64,000 bases of DNA from Escherichia coli (GTDB lineage Bacteria > Pseudomonadota > Gammaproteobacteria > Enterobacterales > Enterobacteriaceae), in the NCBI RefSeq assembly GCF_003018255.1, contig NZ_CP027440.1. One strand, written 5' to 3'. The notes under the pieces are model-generated. The model was not told the DNA's origin, did not search any database, and saw nothing but the letters and a program-made list of their open reading frames with translations. The translations under genes and the position numbers were made by a program. Position 1 is the first letter of the stretch. The number at the start of each line of letters is the position of its first letter. Of this stretch, positions 5,351 to 54,005 are shown piece by piece.

Positions 5351-8253
<2,903 letters not shown>

Positions 8254-48017: not shown

Positions 48018-49306
48018 AGGGAAAGATCACGCAACGCTGCTTTTTTGTACTAATTAATTCGCATTTTATGTTTAAAAATTGAGATATTCCTCATTACCTA
48101 AAGCTGTTTTTTATTGCTTATACATGATCAAATACTCCTTACATAATTAAGGAGAACAAAATGGAACTTAAAAAATTGATGGAACATATTTCTATTATCC
48201 CCGATTACAGACAAGCCTGGAAAGTGGAACATAAATTGTCGGATATTCTACTGTTGACTATTTGTGCCGTTATTTCTGGTGCAGAAGGCTGGGAAGATAT
48301 AGAGGATTTTGGGGAAACACATCTCGATTTTTTGAAGCAATATGGTGATTTTGAAAATGGTATTCCTGTTCACGATACCATTGCCAGAGTTGTATCCTGT
48401 ATCAGTCCTGCAAAATTTCACGAGTGCTTTATTAACTGGATGCGTGACTGCCATTCTTCAGATGATAAAGACGTTATTGCAATTGATGGAAAAACGCTCC
48501 GGCATTCTTATGACAAGAGTCGCCGCAGGGGAGCGATTCATGTCATTAGTGCGTTCTCAACAATGCACAGTCTGGTCATCGGACAGATCAGGACGGATGA
48601 GAAATCCAATGAGATCACAGCTATCCATGAACTTCTTAACATGCTGGATATTAAAGGAAAAATCATCACAACTGATGCGATGGGTTGCCAGAAAGATATC
48701 GCAGAGAAGATACAAAAACAGGGCGGTGATTATTTATTCGCTGTAAAAGGAAATCAGGGGCGGCTTAATAAAGCCTTTGAGGAAAAATTCCCACTGAAAG
48801 AATTAAATAATCCAGAGCATGACAGTTACGCAATTAGTGAAAAAAGTCACGGCAGAGAAGAAATCCGTCTTCACATTGTTTGCGATGTCCCTGATGAACT
48901 TATTGATTTCATGTTTGAATGGAAAGGTCTGAAGAAATTATGCGTGGCAGTCTCCTTTCGGTCAATAATAGCAGAACAAAAGAAAGAGCCCGAAATGACG
49001 GTCAGATATTATATCAGTTCTGCTGATTTAACCGCAGAGAAGTTCGCCACAGCAATCCGAAACCACTGACACGTGGAGAATAAGCTGCACTGGCGTCTGG
49101 ACGTGGTAATGAATGAAGACGACTGCAAAATAAGAAGAGGAAACGCCGCAGAATTATTTTCAGGGATACGGCACATCGCTATTAATATTTTAACGAATGA
49201 TAATGTATTCAAGGCAGGGTTAAGACGTAAGATGCGAAAAGCAGCCATGGACAGAAACTACCTGGCGTCAGTCCTTGCTGGGAGCGGGCTTTCGTAATCT
49301 TTCCCT
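48018..49306 (+). mobile_element. ISAs1-family insertion sequence (H-repeat type), copy 1, 1289 bp
   Basis: Terminal inverted repeats AGGGAAAGATCACG...CGTAATCTTTCCCT; same length and ends as copies 2 and 3; no flanking direct repeat. Confidence 0.75.
48161..49297 (+). pseudogene. ISAs1-family transposase (H-repeat-associated protein) interrupted by an in-frame TGA at 49067-49069
   Basis: ORFs 48161-49069 and 49073-49297 together match the intact 378-aa copies; RNH-stop-HVENK here versus RNHWHVENK in copies 2 and 3 (TGG to TGA). Confidence 0.7.
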
Positions 49307-49349
49307 GGCGTCAGTCCTTGCAAGGAGCGGGCTTTCGTAATCTTTCCCT
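49307..49349 (+). repeat. Partial tandem duplication (about 43 bp) of the IS right terminus
   Basis: cgtcagtccttgcaaggagcgggctttcgtaatctttccct repeats the last about 40 bp of the IS immediately after copy 1. Confidence 0.6.
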
Positions 49350-49769
49350 GGGCGGTATATCATCCAGGACTCGATTGGGCTGAAGGGGGGATGGAATCTG
49401 TACCAATATCCGCTGAATCCAGTGCAACACGTTGATCCATTAGGGCTTAGTACTATGATAATAGGTAACGGCCCCGTTCCTGATAATCCTTTTGGGCATG
49501 CTGCGGCGGCAAATCGATATGGATTAATGAGTTCGGGAACTGGGGATGAGATGGGAGCCTCTGTCTCTGATTATTTTAAAAAGATGCAACCCCGCAGAGA
49601 TACCTGGATTTGGATAATAGATACAACAGATGAAGAAGAACAATGTATGATGAATAAGGCAATAGACCTTAATAAAAAACTAAAAACTATTAACCTCGGG
49701 CCTCTTCCTGTTTTAAATAATTGTTTTAGCCGAACGAACATGATTTTTGAGGCGTGCGGGTTTAACAAC
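49350..49769 (+). pseudogene. Orphan rhs 3' fragment (core-end motif plus C-terminal toxin domain), lacking a 5' region and interrupted by IS copy 2
   Basis: In-frame translation [33 protein letters not shown] then toxin domain (ORF 49422-49805) running into the IS at 49770; homologous to the main rhs core end. Confidence 0.6.
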
Positions 49770-51058
49770 AGGGAAAGATCACGTAACGCTGCTTTTTTGT
49801 ACTAAATAATTCGCATTTTATGTTTAAAAATTGAGATATTCCTCATTACCTAAAGCTGTTTTTTATTGCTTATACATGATCAAATACTCCTTACATAATT
49901 AAGGAGAACAAAATGAAACTTAAAAAATTGATGGAACATATTTCTATTATCCCCGATTACAGACAAGCCTGGAAAGTGGAACATAAATTGTCGGATATTC
50001 TACTGTTGACTATTTGTGCCGTTATTTCTGGTGCAGAAGGCTGGGAAGATATAGAGGATTTTGGGGAAACACATCTCGATTTTTTAAAACAATATGGTGA
50101 TTTTGAAAATGGTATTCCTGTTCACGATACCATCGCCAGAGTTGTATCCTGTATCAGTCCTTCAAAATTTCACGAGTGCTTTATTAACTGGATGCGAGAT
50201 TGCCATACTTCAGATGATAAAGACGTTATTGCAATCGATGGAAAAACACTCCGGCATTCTTATGACAGGAGTCGCCGCAGGGGAGCGATTCATGTCATTA
50301 GTGCGTTCTCAACAATGCACAGTCTGGTCATCGGACAGATCAGGACGGATGAGAAATCTAATGAGATTACAGCTATCCCAGAACTTCTTAACATGCTGGA
50401 TATTAAAGGAAAAATCATCACAACTGATGCGATGGGTTGCCAGAAAGATATTGCAGAGAAGATACAAAAACAGGGCGGTGATTATTTATTCGCTGTAAAA
50501 GGAAATCAGGGGCGGCTTAATAAAGCCTTTGAGGAAAAATTCCCACTGAAAGAATTAAATAATCCAGAGCATGACAGTTACGCAATTAGTGAAAAAAGTC
50601 ACGGCAGAGAAGAAATCCGTCTTCACATTGTTTGCGATGTCCCTGATGAACTTATTGATTTCATGTTTGAATGGAAAGGTCTGAAGAAATTATGCGTGGC
50701 AGTCTCCTTTCGGTCAATAATAGCAGAACAAAAGAAAGAGCCCGAAATGACGGTCAGATATTATATCAGTTCTGCTGATTTAACCGCAGAGAAGTTCGCC
50801 ACAGCAATCCGAAACCACTGGCACGTGGAGAATAAGCTGCACTGGCGTCTGGACGTGGTAATGAATGAAGACGACTGCAAAATAAGAAGAGGAAACGCCG
50901 CAGAATTATTTTCAGGGATACGGCACATCGCTATTAATATTTTAACGAATGATAAGGTATTCAAGGCAGGGTTAAGACGTAAGATGCGAAAAGCAGCCAT
51001 GGACAGAAACTACCTGGCGTCAGTCCTTGCAGGGAGCGGGCTTTCGTAATCTTTCCCT
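49770..51058 (+). mobile_element. ISAs1-family insertion sequence (H-repeat type), copy 2, 1289 bp, flanked by a 12-bp direct repeat
   Basis: Same inverted repeats as copy 1; GGGTTTAACAAC present at 49758-49769 and 51059-51070. Confidence 0.8.
49913..51049 (+). CDS. ISAs1-family transposase (H-repeat-associated protein), intact
   Basis: 378-aa ORF ([25 protein letters not shown]...); about 98% identical to the copy 3 protein. Confidence 0.8.
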
Positions 51059-51196
51059 GGGTTTAACAACCCCTCTATGAATACAAATGCGCCTATAAGC
51101 CTACAAGTGCTCGGTGAGCTTTATGGATATCAAAGATATATTATGCCTAAAGGTCCTTTCACTGGATTCCCATTTGAATTTCAAGAGGTAAAGTAA
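51059..51196 (+). pseudogene. 3' tail of the orphan rhs C-terminal toxin gene displaced by the IS copy 2 insertion
   Basis: Continues the upstream frame exactly after one copy of the direct repeat: GFNNPSMNTNAPISLQVLGELYGYQRYIMPKGPFTGFPFEFQEVK-stop, with stop TAA abutting the next ATG. Confidence 0.55.
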
Positions 51197-51595
51197 ATGG
51201 AAATGCTTGGGAAGATATTAGTGATAATTATTTCCATGATAATTATATCTTGTGATTATTATAATGCTGGCATGGACTATCAAGATAATATAGCCCTCGA
51301 GCAAGTCGTAACATGGGATTCTGATAATATATTCACACCTAATATCTTTGAACATAATGGAAGATGTTTTATGAAGAAAAATGAAACATGGATGTTATTA
51401 AATGGAGATGCAACACCAAACATTAGAACAATGAGCAATAAGAAAATAGAATGCCTGGAGAAGAGTGAAGTAGAATGGGCTAGTAGGGTTTGCGACAGTA
51501 TCACAGACAAGGAAAGGGAAAATCTGAAGGCATTAATATGTAGCAAACCAGCTAAATCAGTTAATACAGGCAAAAGACCAGCGTTAGGATATTGA
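51197..51595 (+). CDS. Putative immunity protein for the orphan rhs C-terminal toxin
   Basis: 132-aa ORF starting at the toxin stop (TAAATG); hydrophobic N-terminus; AT-rich, typical of rhs immunity genes. Confidence 0.45.
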   Translation: MEMLGKILVIIISMIIISCDYYNAGMDYQDNIALEQVVTWDSDNIFTPNIFEHNGRCFMKKNETWMLLNGDATPNIRTMSNKKIECLEKSEVEWASRVCDSITDKERENLKALICSKPAKSVNTGKRPALGY

Positions 51596-51639
51596 AACCG
51601 GCACTGCACTCTATCACTATTACAATATTCTGAGTGACT

Positions 51640-51732
51640 AGAGCAACTGCTCCGCCATCCGGGCTAGCAGTATGACGACGAATCCGAACTGCACTACAAC
51701 TGGCACCGGTACTACAATCCGGGACAGGGACT
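51640..51732 (+). pseudogene. Degenerate rhs core-end remnant truncated by IS copy 3
   Basis: actgcactacaactggcaccggtactacaatccgggacaggg is about 75% identical to the main rhs core 3' region around 46916-46960 and stops at the IS left end. Confidence 0.4.
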
Positions 51733-53021
51733 AGGGAAAGATCACGCAACGCTGCTTTTTTGTACTAAATAATTCGCATTTTATGTTTAAAAATTGAGAT
51801 ATTCCTCATTACCTGAAGCTGTTTTTTATTGCTTATACATGATCAAATACTCCTTACATAATTAAGGAGAACAAAATGGAACTTAAAAAATTGATGGAGC
51901 ATATTTCTATTATCCCCGATTACAGACAAGCCTGGAAAGTGGAACATAAATTGTCGGATATTCTACTGTTGACTATTTGTGCCGTTATTTCTGGTGCAGA
52001 AGGCTGGGAAGATATAGAGGATTTTGGGGAAACACATCTCGATTTTTTGAAGCAATATGGTGATTTTGAAAATGGTATTCCTGTTCACGATACCATTGCC
52101 AGAGTTGTATCCTGTATCAGTCCTGCAAAATTTCACGAGTGCTTTATTAACTGGATGCGTGACTGCCATTCTTCAGATGATAAAGACGTTATTGCAATTG
52201 ATGGAAAAACGCTCCGGCATTCTTATGACAAGAGTCGCCGCAGGGGAGCGATTCATGTCATTAGTGCGTTCTCAACAATGCACAGTCTGGTCATCGGACA
52301 GATCAGGACGGATGAGAAATCCAATGAGATCACAGCTATCCATGAACTTCTTAACATGTTGGATATTAAAGGAAAAATTATCACAACTGATGCGATGGGT
52401 TGCCAGAAAGATATCGCAGAGAAGATACAAAAACAGGGCGGTGATTATTTATTCGCTGTAAAAGGAAATCAGGGGCGGCTTAATAAAGCCTTTGAGGAAA
52501 AATTCCCACTGAAAGAATTAAATAATCCAGAGCATGACAGTTACGCAATTAGTGAAAAGAGTCACGGCAGAGAAGAAATCCGTCTTCACATTGTTTGCGA
52601 TGTCCCTGATGAACTTATTGATTTCATGTTTGAATGGAAAGGTCTGAAGAAATTATGCGTGGCAGTCTCCTTTCGGTCAATAATAGCAGAACAAAAGAAA
52701 GAGCCAGAAATGACGGTCAGATATTATATCAGTTCTGCTGATTTAACCGCAGAGAAGTTCGCCACAGCAATCCGAAACCACTGGCACGTGGAGAATAAGC
52801 TGCACTGGCGTCTGGACGTGGTAATGAATGAAGACGACTGCAAAATAAGAAGAGGAAATGCAGCAGAATTATTTTCAGGGATACGGCACATCGCTATTAA
52901 TATTTTAACGAATGATAATGTATTCAAGGCAGGGTTAAGACGTAAGATGCGAAAAGCAGCCATGGACAGAAACTACCTGGCGTCAGTCCTTGCTGGGAGC
53001 GGGCTTTCGTAATCTTTCCCT
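51733..53021 (+). mobile_element. ISAs1-family insertion sequence (H-repeat type), copy 3, 1289 bp
   Basis: Same inverted repeats; followed by a partial (about 27 bp) duplicate of the right terminus; no flanking direct repeat. Confidence 0.75.
51876..53012 (+). CDS. ISAs1-family transposase (H-repeat-associated protein), intact
   Basis: 378-aa ORF, near-identical to copy 1 but without the premature stop. Confidence 0.8.
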
Positions 53022-53081
53022 GGGGGAGCGGGCTTTCGTAGTCTTACCCTGACTCTCCCCAGCCCTAAACACAACCCCCAC

Positions 53082-53852
53082 TCACCACAACCTAAACTCA
53101 TCCGCATCCCGCCATGCCGGAAACTTTTCTCTATATTCCCGCAATGCCATCATCGACAGCTCCGCATCAATGCGCGTTGCCTGATGCGCGTCGGCAGTAG
53201 CGATAATCTCGCCTTGCGGATTAATCACCCGGCTGTCACCGCGATAATGGCAGCCGTTGCCATCGCTGCCGACGCGATTGCATCCCGCCACATACGCTTG
53301 ATTCTCAATCGCGCGGGCTGTCAGCAATGCCTGCCAGTGCAGAGAGCGCGGAGCAGGCCAGTTGGCGACGTACAGGGCGAGGTCATAATCGTTGAGATTG
53401 CGCGACCACACCGGAAAACGTAAGTCGTAGCACACCAGCGGCAAAATACGCCAGCCGCGCCATTCCACAATCACTCGCTCATTGCCCGCTTTATAATGCA
53501 GATGCTCATCTGCCATGCGGAACAGATGACGCTTATCATAAAAATGTACCGTGCCGCCCGGCTCAACCAGCAAAAAGCGGTTAACCGAACCAGACTCCGT
53601 TTGTAATGCAACACTGCCTGCAATCAGCGCATTGCACTGCTGCGCTTTAGCGGTCATCCAGTTCACTACGTCATCTTGTGCTAGCGACGAAGCTGCCGCT
53701 TCCATGGCAAAGCCGCTGGTAAACATCTCCGGTAGAACGATCACATCGCGCCCGGTAATACCTTCCAGTTGACGATCAAAATGGCGCAGGTTGGCAGGAC
53801 CATCCATCCACACCAGTGGTTGCTGCAAAAGCGTAATCTTCAAACCAGGCAC
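53082..53852 (-). CDS. yafV: Nitrilase-superfamily amidase (omega-amidase, YafV type)
   Basis: ORF 53082-53861 trimmed to GTG 53852 with AAGGAG RBS; carbon-nitrogen hydrolase motifs (VLPEMF, CYDLRFP). Confidence 0.85.
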   Translation of the reverse strand: MPGLKITLLQQPLVWMDGPANLRHFDRQLEGITGRDVIVLPEMFTSGFAMEAAASSLAQDDVVNWMTAKAQQCNALIAGSVALQTESGSVNRFLLVEPGGTVHFYDKRHLFRMADEHLHYKAGNERVIVEWRGWRILPLVCYDLRFPVWSRNLNDYDLALYVANWPAPRSLHWQALLTARAIENQAYVAGCNRVGSDGNGCHYRGDSRVINPQGEIIATADAHQATRIDAELSMMALREYREKFPAWRDADEFRLW

Positions 53853-54005
53853 GGTGTACAACTCCTTTATGCGAAGGGTTTTATAACTCTAACACCTTAT
53901 CAGGCAGTTGCCTTAGCGCAGAATAAATTGATAACAAATGCTGATATTGGAAATATCTGATTTGCAAATTATCGTGTTATCGCCAGGCTTTAGGGAGTTA
54001 ATCAC

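Follow-up and report, generated by a model that had tools for sequence, protein, structure and literature searches.

Extra ISEc1 right ends beside two of three copies in an Escherichia coli Rhs island are probably inert scars with different histories

Insertion sequences (IS) of the ISAs1 family duplicate about 8-11 bp of target upon insertion (ISfinder), and to our knowledge the chemistry of their transposition is uncharacterised. One member, ISEc1, is also known as the 'H-repeat', and direct-orientation H-repeat termini that abut truncated H-repeats are common. At RhsC of E. coli K-12, for example, a copy represented by its first 380 bp precedes a full copy, the right end of which lies against position ~24 of a third (H-rptC1-C3), and beside yafV the last ~290 bp of an old H-repeat persist in K-12 MG1655 as the pseudogene yafF ('min-5'). 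Hill's laboratory reportedly described both min-5 and the stacked H-rptC features in the early 1990s.

IS ends and their surroundings are also rearranged in other ways. IS-promoted adjacent deletions are classical for IS1 and IS10, and short direct repeats can give rise to microhomology-mediated tandem duplications. Junctions of IS30, IS911, and IS21 place left and right ends a few bp apart as reactive intermediates, with the IS perhaps drawn to end-like sequence, and Tn7, Mu, and IS21-type elements depend for transposition on repeated end sites that every active copy retains.

Here, we analyse two extra ISEc1 right ends in the Rhs toxin island that occupies ~43 kb to 54 kb of a 64,000-nucleotide stretch of E. 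coli DNA (the window). Both are ordinary scars of past IS activity that call for no new mechanism, and features of this kind are already known as IS remnants, microhomology duplications, and the K-12 yafF relic series. Comparison with related sequences indicates that the two are probably inert and differ in history, the unit following copy 3 being an old relic and the unit following copy 1 a lineage-confined tandem insertion.

The borders of the island are an IS1 fragment on one side and the conserved genes yafV, ivy, and fadE on the other (Table 1). In a megablast search with positions 47000-54000, the layout was matched in E. coli chromosomes at identities no higher than 99.3%, and the order annotated in these chromosomes is an RHS core protein, dsORF, an IS1 fragment, an ISEc1 family transposase, an RHS core fragment, a hypothetical protein, a second ISEc1, and yafV. 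Orthologues of the main Rhs gene are annotated as 'RHS element core protein', with Pfam RHS/YD-shell matches in an orthologue, and those of the IS1 fragment in strains DETEC-S792 and JNE23-011 as 'IS1 family transposase, incomplete', the flank being identical in the window. Remnants of at least two IS families (the IS1 fragment and ISEc1) lie within 100 bp at the left flank of copy 1. The orphan Rhs core fragment is contiguous in DETEC-S792, where it extends 450 bp further left.

Table 1. Features of the Rhs island and its ISEc1 copies, in window coordinates
Feature	Position	Strand	Basis
Main Rhs core/toxin gene, 1,402 aa, upstream of yafV	43279..47487	+	ORF list
IS1 transposase fragment, left flank of ISEc1 copy 1	47916..48014	-	Orthologue annotation
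ISEc1 copy 1, 1,291 bp, transposase pseudogene, without target duplication	48018..49308	+	Sequence comparison
Extra unit 1, 43-bp head-to-tail repeat of IS positions 1249-1291, after copy 1	49309..49351	+	TRF, sequence
Orphan Rhs core fragment and toxin tip, starting GRYIIQDPIGL, split by copy 2	49352..49769	+	Sequence
ISEc1 copy 2, intact 378-aa transposase (49913-51049), one right end	49770..51060	+	ORF, Pfam
ISEc1 copy 3, intact 378-aa transposase (51876-53012), without target duplication	51733..53023	+	ORF
Extra unit 2, 28 bp (29 if G53023 is counted), GGGAGCGGGCTTTCGTAGTCTTACCCTG, after copy 3	53024..53051	+	Sequence, relatives
yafV (2-oxoglutaramate amidase), right-border anchor of the IS pile	53082..53861	-	ORF, orthologue annotation

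The three full ISEc1 copies are each 1,291 bp long, lie in the same orientation, and are 97.9-99.2% identical to one another. All conform to the ISAs1 family in length (about 1.2-1.5 kb) and in having short imperfect inverted repeats, with termini AGGGAAAGATCACG... at the left and ...CGTAATCTTTCCCT(GG) at the right. ISEc1 encodes a single 378-aa DDE transposase, orthologues of which carry the NCBI label 'ISAs1-like element ISEc1 family transposase'; the copy 2 product matches DDE_Tnp_1_assoc (PF13808, E = 7e-34) and DDE_Tnp_1 (PF01609, E = 3e-30), both of which pass the Pfam cut-offs. In copy 1, a TGG to TGA change at 49067-49069 (equivalent to 50819-50821 in copy 2) cuts the transposase to 302 aa. 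The sister strain JNE23-011 has the same stop, under the annotation 'internal stop', and its copy 1 differs from that of the window at one of 1291 positions. Exact look-ups of five transposase variants placed four at one chromosomal locus each, and the truncated copy 1 product is not on record.

Copy 1 is a mosaic that matches copy 3 up to position 611 and again at 1187 and 1262, and that has copy-2-type bases at IS positions 627, 647, 974, 1127, and 1130 (tract 627-1130). The orthologue of copy 1 in DETEC-S792, a strain that has no copy 2, is without this copy-2-type tract, and exchange between copies has therefore occurred; the distribution of the variants suggests that gene conversion between neighbouring IS copies produced the mosaic.

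Copy 2 sits in the orphan Rhs toxin tip and provides direct evidence for past H-repeat transposition. It is flanked by direct repeats of GGGTTTAACAAC (49758-49769 and 51059-51070), and the uninterrupted site is present once in DETEC-S792 (L001 6166-6177). Because the repeat stands on both sides and the empty site is single-copy, this is a genuine transposition, with a target duplication fixed only to 10-12 bp because G/C is shared at the termini. An ISAs1-type duplication was found for neither copy 1 nor copy 3, which is consistent with subsequent rearrangement at these two; the left junction of copy 3 lies inside an Rhs core fragment and is identical to the IS left junction in strain SW4848. 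H-repeat movement in E. coli has been reported as unobserved (PMC3032704), a remark that was the sole relevant statement recovered by our literature searches on H-repeat and ISAs1, in which the original H-repeat papers were not retrievable; a paper on Rhs C-terminal displacement does not discuss IS. The insertion of copy 2, with its empty site, is a small counter-example to unobserved H-repeat transposition.

A preliminary description of this region noted repeats of the IS right end following copies 1 and 3, and these are real. Tandem Repeats Finder (TRF) returned one array of period 43 (49261-49351; 2.1 copies with 95% matches) and another of period 29 (52995-53051; 2.0 copies with 92% matches), and the 28-nt right terminus GGGAGCGGGCTTTCGTAATCTTTCCCTG occurs with up to 3 mismatches at five window sites (49280, 49323, 51032, 52995, and 53024), the chance expectation from 100 shuffles being 0. 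The window thus holds five ISEc1 right ends for three full copies, and no duplicated left ends were found within it. Extra unit 1 is identical to the end of copy 1 at 41 of 43 positions, with TG to AA at 49322-49323, and extra unit 2 to the end of copy 3 at 26 of 28, with A to G and T to A differences. The imperfect terminal inverted repeat, which matches the left end at 17 of 23 positions, is complete in each unit, and the phrase 'two closely spaced right inverted repeats' is accurate for them. The positions given previously (49307-49349 and 53022-53048) indicate the right sites but are off by 2-3 bases, and the second segment is 28/29 bp rather than 27 bp.

The core element in the window is no different from ISEc1/H-repeat elsewhere, the extra units lying outside it and being absent from the other copies examined. 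Single right ends are found on copy 2 and on many reference copies, among them K-12 H-rptB, K-12 H-rptE, an ST648 copy, and the sister-strain copy 1, which rules out that the units are part of a longer canonical element, the case that the preliminary description had named as its refutation. The arrangement resembles IS30, IS911, and IS21 junctions in that IS ends lie close together; the window differs in having two right ends that point the same way at a spacing of 29 or 43 bp, with no sign of reactivity and without the abutted left and right ends of an IS circle or dimer junction. The earlier suggestion that the units are 'footprints' of abortive transposition holds only in the broad sense of scars left by IS activity, but there is no sign of abortive transposition itself.

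The unit following copy 3 can be traced through other genomes as GGGAGCGGGCTTTCGTAGTCTTACCCTG, followed by the flank ACTCTCCCC and then by yafV. E. coli W has a full-length ISEc1-like element, its transposase intact, that ends ...CGTAGTCTTACCCCG against ACTCTCCC beside yafV, in the same diverged terminus and on the same flank as extra unit 2, and K-12 yafF represents the same ancestral element at the same site, again with the same right end and flank. In SW4848-type strains, 57 bp of the old yafV H-repeat persist and end on ACTCTCCC; about 199 genomes have most of this arrangement. The remnants at yafV thus form a series from the full element (E. coli W) through ~290 bp (K-12), 57 bp (SW4848), and 28/29 bp (the window) to 16 bp (metagenome contig L036). 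In L036, the 16 bp are joined by a second stub of ~22-31 bp that derives from yet another copy, giving three right-end layers. In SW4848, a 77-bp stretch (L002 2404-2480) separates the 57-bp stub from the right end of a full ISEc1; it matches sequence annotated elsewhere as IS256-family transposase, and a third IS type was therefore involved in eroding the old element.

With longer orthologous copies present at the same junction in E. coli W, K-12, and SW4848, extra unit 2 is the last remnant of an older H-repeat beside yafV. A tandem duplication of copy 3 is ruled out, since the unit has the same variants and flank as the old element at yafV, and the microhomology available for such an event is at most 2 bp; the initial reading of this segment as a duplicated IS end has accordingly been replaced by that of an older relic at the same site. 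The double ends are like those of H-rptC1-C3 in setting a terminus against a truncated H-repeat in direct orientation. What distinguishes the window from K-12 is that its old copy has been reduced to only 28/29 bp and lies directly against a newer full copy, such that it mimics a tandem duplication.

Copy 3 and the SW4848 IS are orthologous, because they share the same left junction in the Rhs core fragment, and the sole difference between them is the amount of DNA missing to the right of the intact terminus. Missing DNA of this kind is what deletions that begin at an IS terminus leave behind, an event that we infer from the sequences compared. As in IS-promoted adjacent deletions, the junctions start at an intact terminus, with variable DNA loss and no target duplication, and the right border is nested across strains (a 77-bp spacer with a 57-bp stub, 29 bp, and 16 bp); unlike for IS1 and IS10, the mechanism is read here from end-points only. 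In the course of events that we propose, the right end of the old H-repeat would always have abutted yafV, and the DNA separating the exact right terminus of a newer copy from a point 29-30 bp short of the old copy's end would have been lost, most likely by an IS-promoted adjacent deletion, or by insertion into the old copy and homologous deletion. Short stubs are expected to persist because longer direct repeats of an adjacent full copy are lost by homologous recombination; only remnants too short for efficient recombination would remain, and terminal stubs would accumulate at the yafV border.

The copy-3-type double end is present in 8 complete genomes and in assemblies that differ in what lies to its left (three contexts, with different left-end types), and is old because it occurs with all three of these contexts. 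The left parts would have been exchanged by recombination, with the IS serving as right-hand homology. In L120 and L124-L126 (positions 5858-7176 of L120), an exact copy-3 transposase is combined with a different left end, AGGGAAAGAACATCAGAAGTAC, and with the same double right end at yafV. This left end is close to the variant left ends of E. coli W, and the upstream cassette of these sequences differs, with PAAR-Rhs, SUKH, and Imm9 immunity genes; their sequences suggest that Rhs cassettes were swapped through recombination inside the IS. In AP045069.1 (L091 2310-2347 / L118 7110-7147), the 29-bp double end has collapsed to one hybrid end, composed of a copy-3 body and the relic-type terminus CGTAGTCTTACCCTG, the unit having been lost by recombination within a 17-bp identical tract. 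Double ends are therefore unstable.

H-repeat ends are stacked at other sites as well. In E. coli W (L086 1501-2140), a 30-bp left-end stub is followed by a spacer of about 70 bp and an ISEc1-like copy truncated at about 520 bp, and the full copy next to yafV has its left terminus directly against the truncated one; this left-end pile-up mirrors the right-end stacking of the window. Pseudocitrobacter vendiensis (L014) has an ISEc1-like copy and, after it, a right-end stub of about 45 bp that has diverged much further. We scanned 100,044 species genomes and a metagenome collection for gapped double-end patterns; nearly all matches were chance occurrences in unrelated organisms, the relevant ones being confined to P. 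vendiensis, L036, and L078, and the 43-bp type of double end did not recur in these genomes or in the metagenome collection.

At an Rhs locus near yddH/nhoA in E. coli Z0117EC0005 (L003 2470-2544), a perfect extra right end of 28/29 bp comes after a 46-bp mini-element, with the same junction as at copy 3. With an identical breakpoint at a different locus, the junction position of the copy-3 type could be other than random. The mini-element is internally deleted, consisting of a 30-bp variant left end, one C, and a 15-bp right end, and is found in nine E. coli genomes. Its left end holds a perfect palindrome (GTGTGCC-GTA-GGCACAC), and an ORF annotated 'putative toxin' passes through the mini-element and stops in the right inverted repeat. 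The first 30 bp recur as a left-end stub in about 208 other genomes, that of E. coli W lying beside the yafV Rhs locus. The idea that the mini-element is a multi-copy MITE is unsupported, the full 46 bp being present only at the one locus in the 9 genomes.

The unit following copy 1 is of much narrower distribution. A 51-bp probe spanning its junction was absent from 5,426 complete E. coli genomes, and the unit was found with the same AA variant in the draft assembly GCA_015919125.1, which differs from the window at one of 3,920 bases. Four sisters with the same three-IS layout (JNE23-011, JNE112863, AP045069.1, and MPGQ01) have a single copy-1 end directly on the flank GGCGGTATATC. The borders of extra unit 1 coincide with a 5-bp repeat, CCTGG, at IS positions -48..-44 and -5..-1, and it is because of this microhomology that the TRF array reaches 2.1 copies, 5 bp past two units. 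In its head-to-tail arrangement, in a period of 43 that equals the CCTGG spacing, in its borders, and in its absence from the four sisters, the unit has the properties of a microhomology-mediated tandem duplication, and a templated tandem duplication is, as judged from these sequences, its most likely origin.

Strand slippage or microhomology-mediated template switching at CCTGG would yield a 43-bp insertion. The unit departs from the product of simple fresh slippage in differing at two adjacent bases: it is two substitutions from the copy-1 end and one from a copy-2-type end, the first changed base of TG to AA being at a third codon position of the transposase, where the change is synonymous and copies have T, A, or G. 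The AA variant is present at no other ISEc1 end among the 5,426 genomes, and a source copy for it was sought in the same set without success. Plain recent slippage needs an extra assumption, because two substitutions in 43 bp far exceed the divergence of roughly 0.1-0.2% between the window and its sisters. The two-base difference would reflect copying from another copy, error-prone synthesis, or some age, and by template switching the AA unit would require an AG-type copy and one further change. The direction may be either gain here or loss in the sisters, since AP045069.1 shows that double ends can be lost.

The relic history established for the neighbouring unit raises the question of whether extra unit 1 is likewise a relic, of an earlier ISEc1 with a copy-2-like end on GGCGGTATATC, with the sisters having lost the unit later. 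We consider this unlikely, albeit the best of the alternatives, and give no better prospects to the route it would entail, in which the copy 1 terminus joined a point 43-44 bp from the old end by adjacent deletion or by self-insertion and recombination. The divergence of the unit from the adjacent end, its proximity to an AG-type end, and the double-to-single collapse in AP045069.1 fit such a history, as do 78 genomes in which, at another locus, an ISEc1 right end lies only 7 bp from this Rhs core position and the P. vendiensis stub (~45 bp), which is much more diverged and has nearly the same start position. However, the junction falls exactly on the only CCTGG microhomology in the terminal ~60 bp; this is expected under slippage, and for a random breakpoint we estimate it as a ~1-in-60 coincidence. 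Moreover, no genome with a full copy at this junction was found among the 5,426, nor one with the AA variant elsewhere, and the core of the D-type (two-IS) outgroup is uninterrupted at the site, such that the relic would require an extra insertion event. Templated tandem duplication remains the preferred origin of extra unit 1.

The shared breakpoint of the copy-3 type bears on a further explanation, that the extra ends reflect a target preference in which ISEc1 termini join G-rich decamers ending GGGC and the element systematically targets itself near its right end. This strikes us as improbable, as does the corollary that a preferred motif is to be found both in the conserved 3' Rhs core (CTGCAGGGGC) and in the ISEc1 right end (GGGAGCGGGC), even though the two resemble each other and the subterminal GGGAGCGGGC is the site of the copy-3-type junction. 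The junction CCCTG/GGGGAGCGGGC is present at two unrelated loci, yafV and the yddH-proximal Rhs locus, and IS/Rhs core junctions fall within 10 bp of each other in the left flanks of copy 3/SW4848 and L078 and in the right flanks of ST648 and JNE23-011. Shared by ST648 on its right and L078 on its left is CTGCAGGGGC, as expected of a 10-bp target duplication, and several further left flanks end GGGGC or GGC. Yet copy 2, the sole demonstrable fresh insertion, used GGTTTAACAA, which does not fit the motif, and neither does the 43-bp unit. The core junctions may go back to a single old insertion that homologous recombination carried from one Rhs core to another; each exact transposase variant sampled is at one locus, and so provides no independent insertions; and the chance that two of about six short stubs share a breakpoint is, by our estimate, roughly 25%. 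Even a weak preference of ISEc1 for G-rich decamers ending GGGC is thus put forward here with considerable doubt, as a candidate pattern in these flanks.

Whatever their cause, junctions at different loci and in different core variants are located in a ~10-bp stretch of the core (...YYDPLQG/GRYI.QDPIGL; CTGCAGGGGC), at window positions 49309-49360 and 51700-51732, at L085 2520-2560, and at L078 about 5690-5731. Orphan core-plus-tip modules also start exactly here, at what may be an insertion hot spot or the mark of one old insertion distributed by recombination.

The preliminary description also raised the possibility that the extra ends are alternative transposase-binding sites. As functional sites, alternative or auxiliary, they would modulate transposition or mobilise a longer element. 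We regard such a role as very improbable, notwithstanding the complete terminal inverted repeat in each unit and the intact transposases of copies 2 and 3, which could work in trans. The units are missing from the demonstrably transposed copy 2 and from most copies, the outer end following copy 3 is mutated at two positions in its terminal 12 bp, and the transposase of copy 1 is a pseudogene; a search for an IS that had moved together with its unit, flanked by a target duplication, found none, and in relatives (L036 and AP045069.1) double ends are decaying or have collapsed. Multiple binding repeats of the Tn7, Mu, and IS21 type are conserved in all active copies, whereas the window units are not conserved and the active-looking copy 2 has one end.

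Least credible of all is that extra unit 1 is an assembly or polishing artefact amid three near-identical 1.3-kb repeats, for although it lies in a repeat-rich region and is in none of the 5,426 complete genomes searched, its presence with the same AA variant in the independent draft GCA_015919125.1 excludes a one-off assembly error, and ordinary sequencing reads should span a 43-bp insertion.

As was anticipated in the preliminary description, extra ends of this kind can mislead boundary calling. With IS tools based on inverted repeats, copy 1 could come out at 1,334 bp and copy 3 at 1,319-1,320 bp, and tools that define IS borders could also output spurious 'variant' elements. The main value of recognising the units lies in annotation. 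They also provide a record of locus history, in which the old H-repeat beside yafV has been eroded stepwise as exchanges to its left replaced Rhs cassettes and newer IS copies, and the right-hand IS may have served as a homology anchor for the Rhs cassette exchanges. The doubtful target preference, if true, would account for the repeated joining 29-30 bp from old ends and the stacking of stubs at the border, and a G-rich preference would likewise explain the location of H-repeats exactly where orphan toxin tips begin. A preference for the Rhs core would then give a simple reason for the long-noted association of H-repeats with Rhs loci and for the positions at which orphan modules start.
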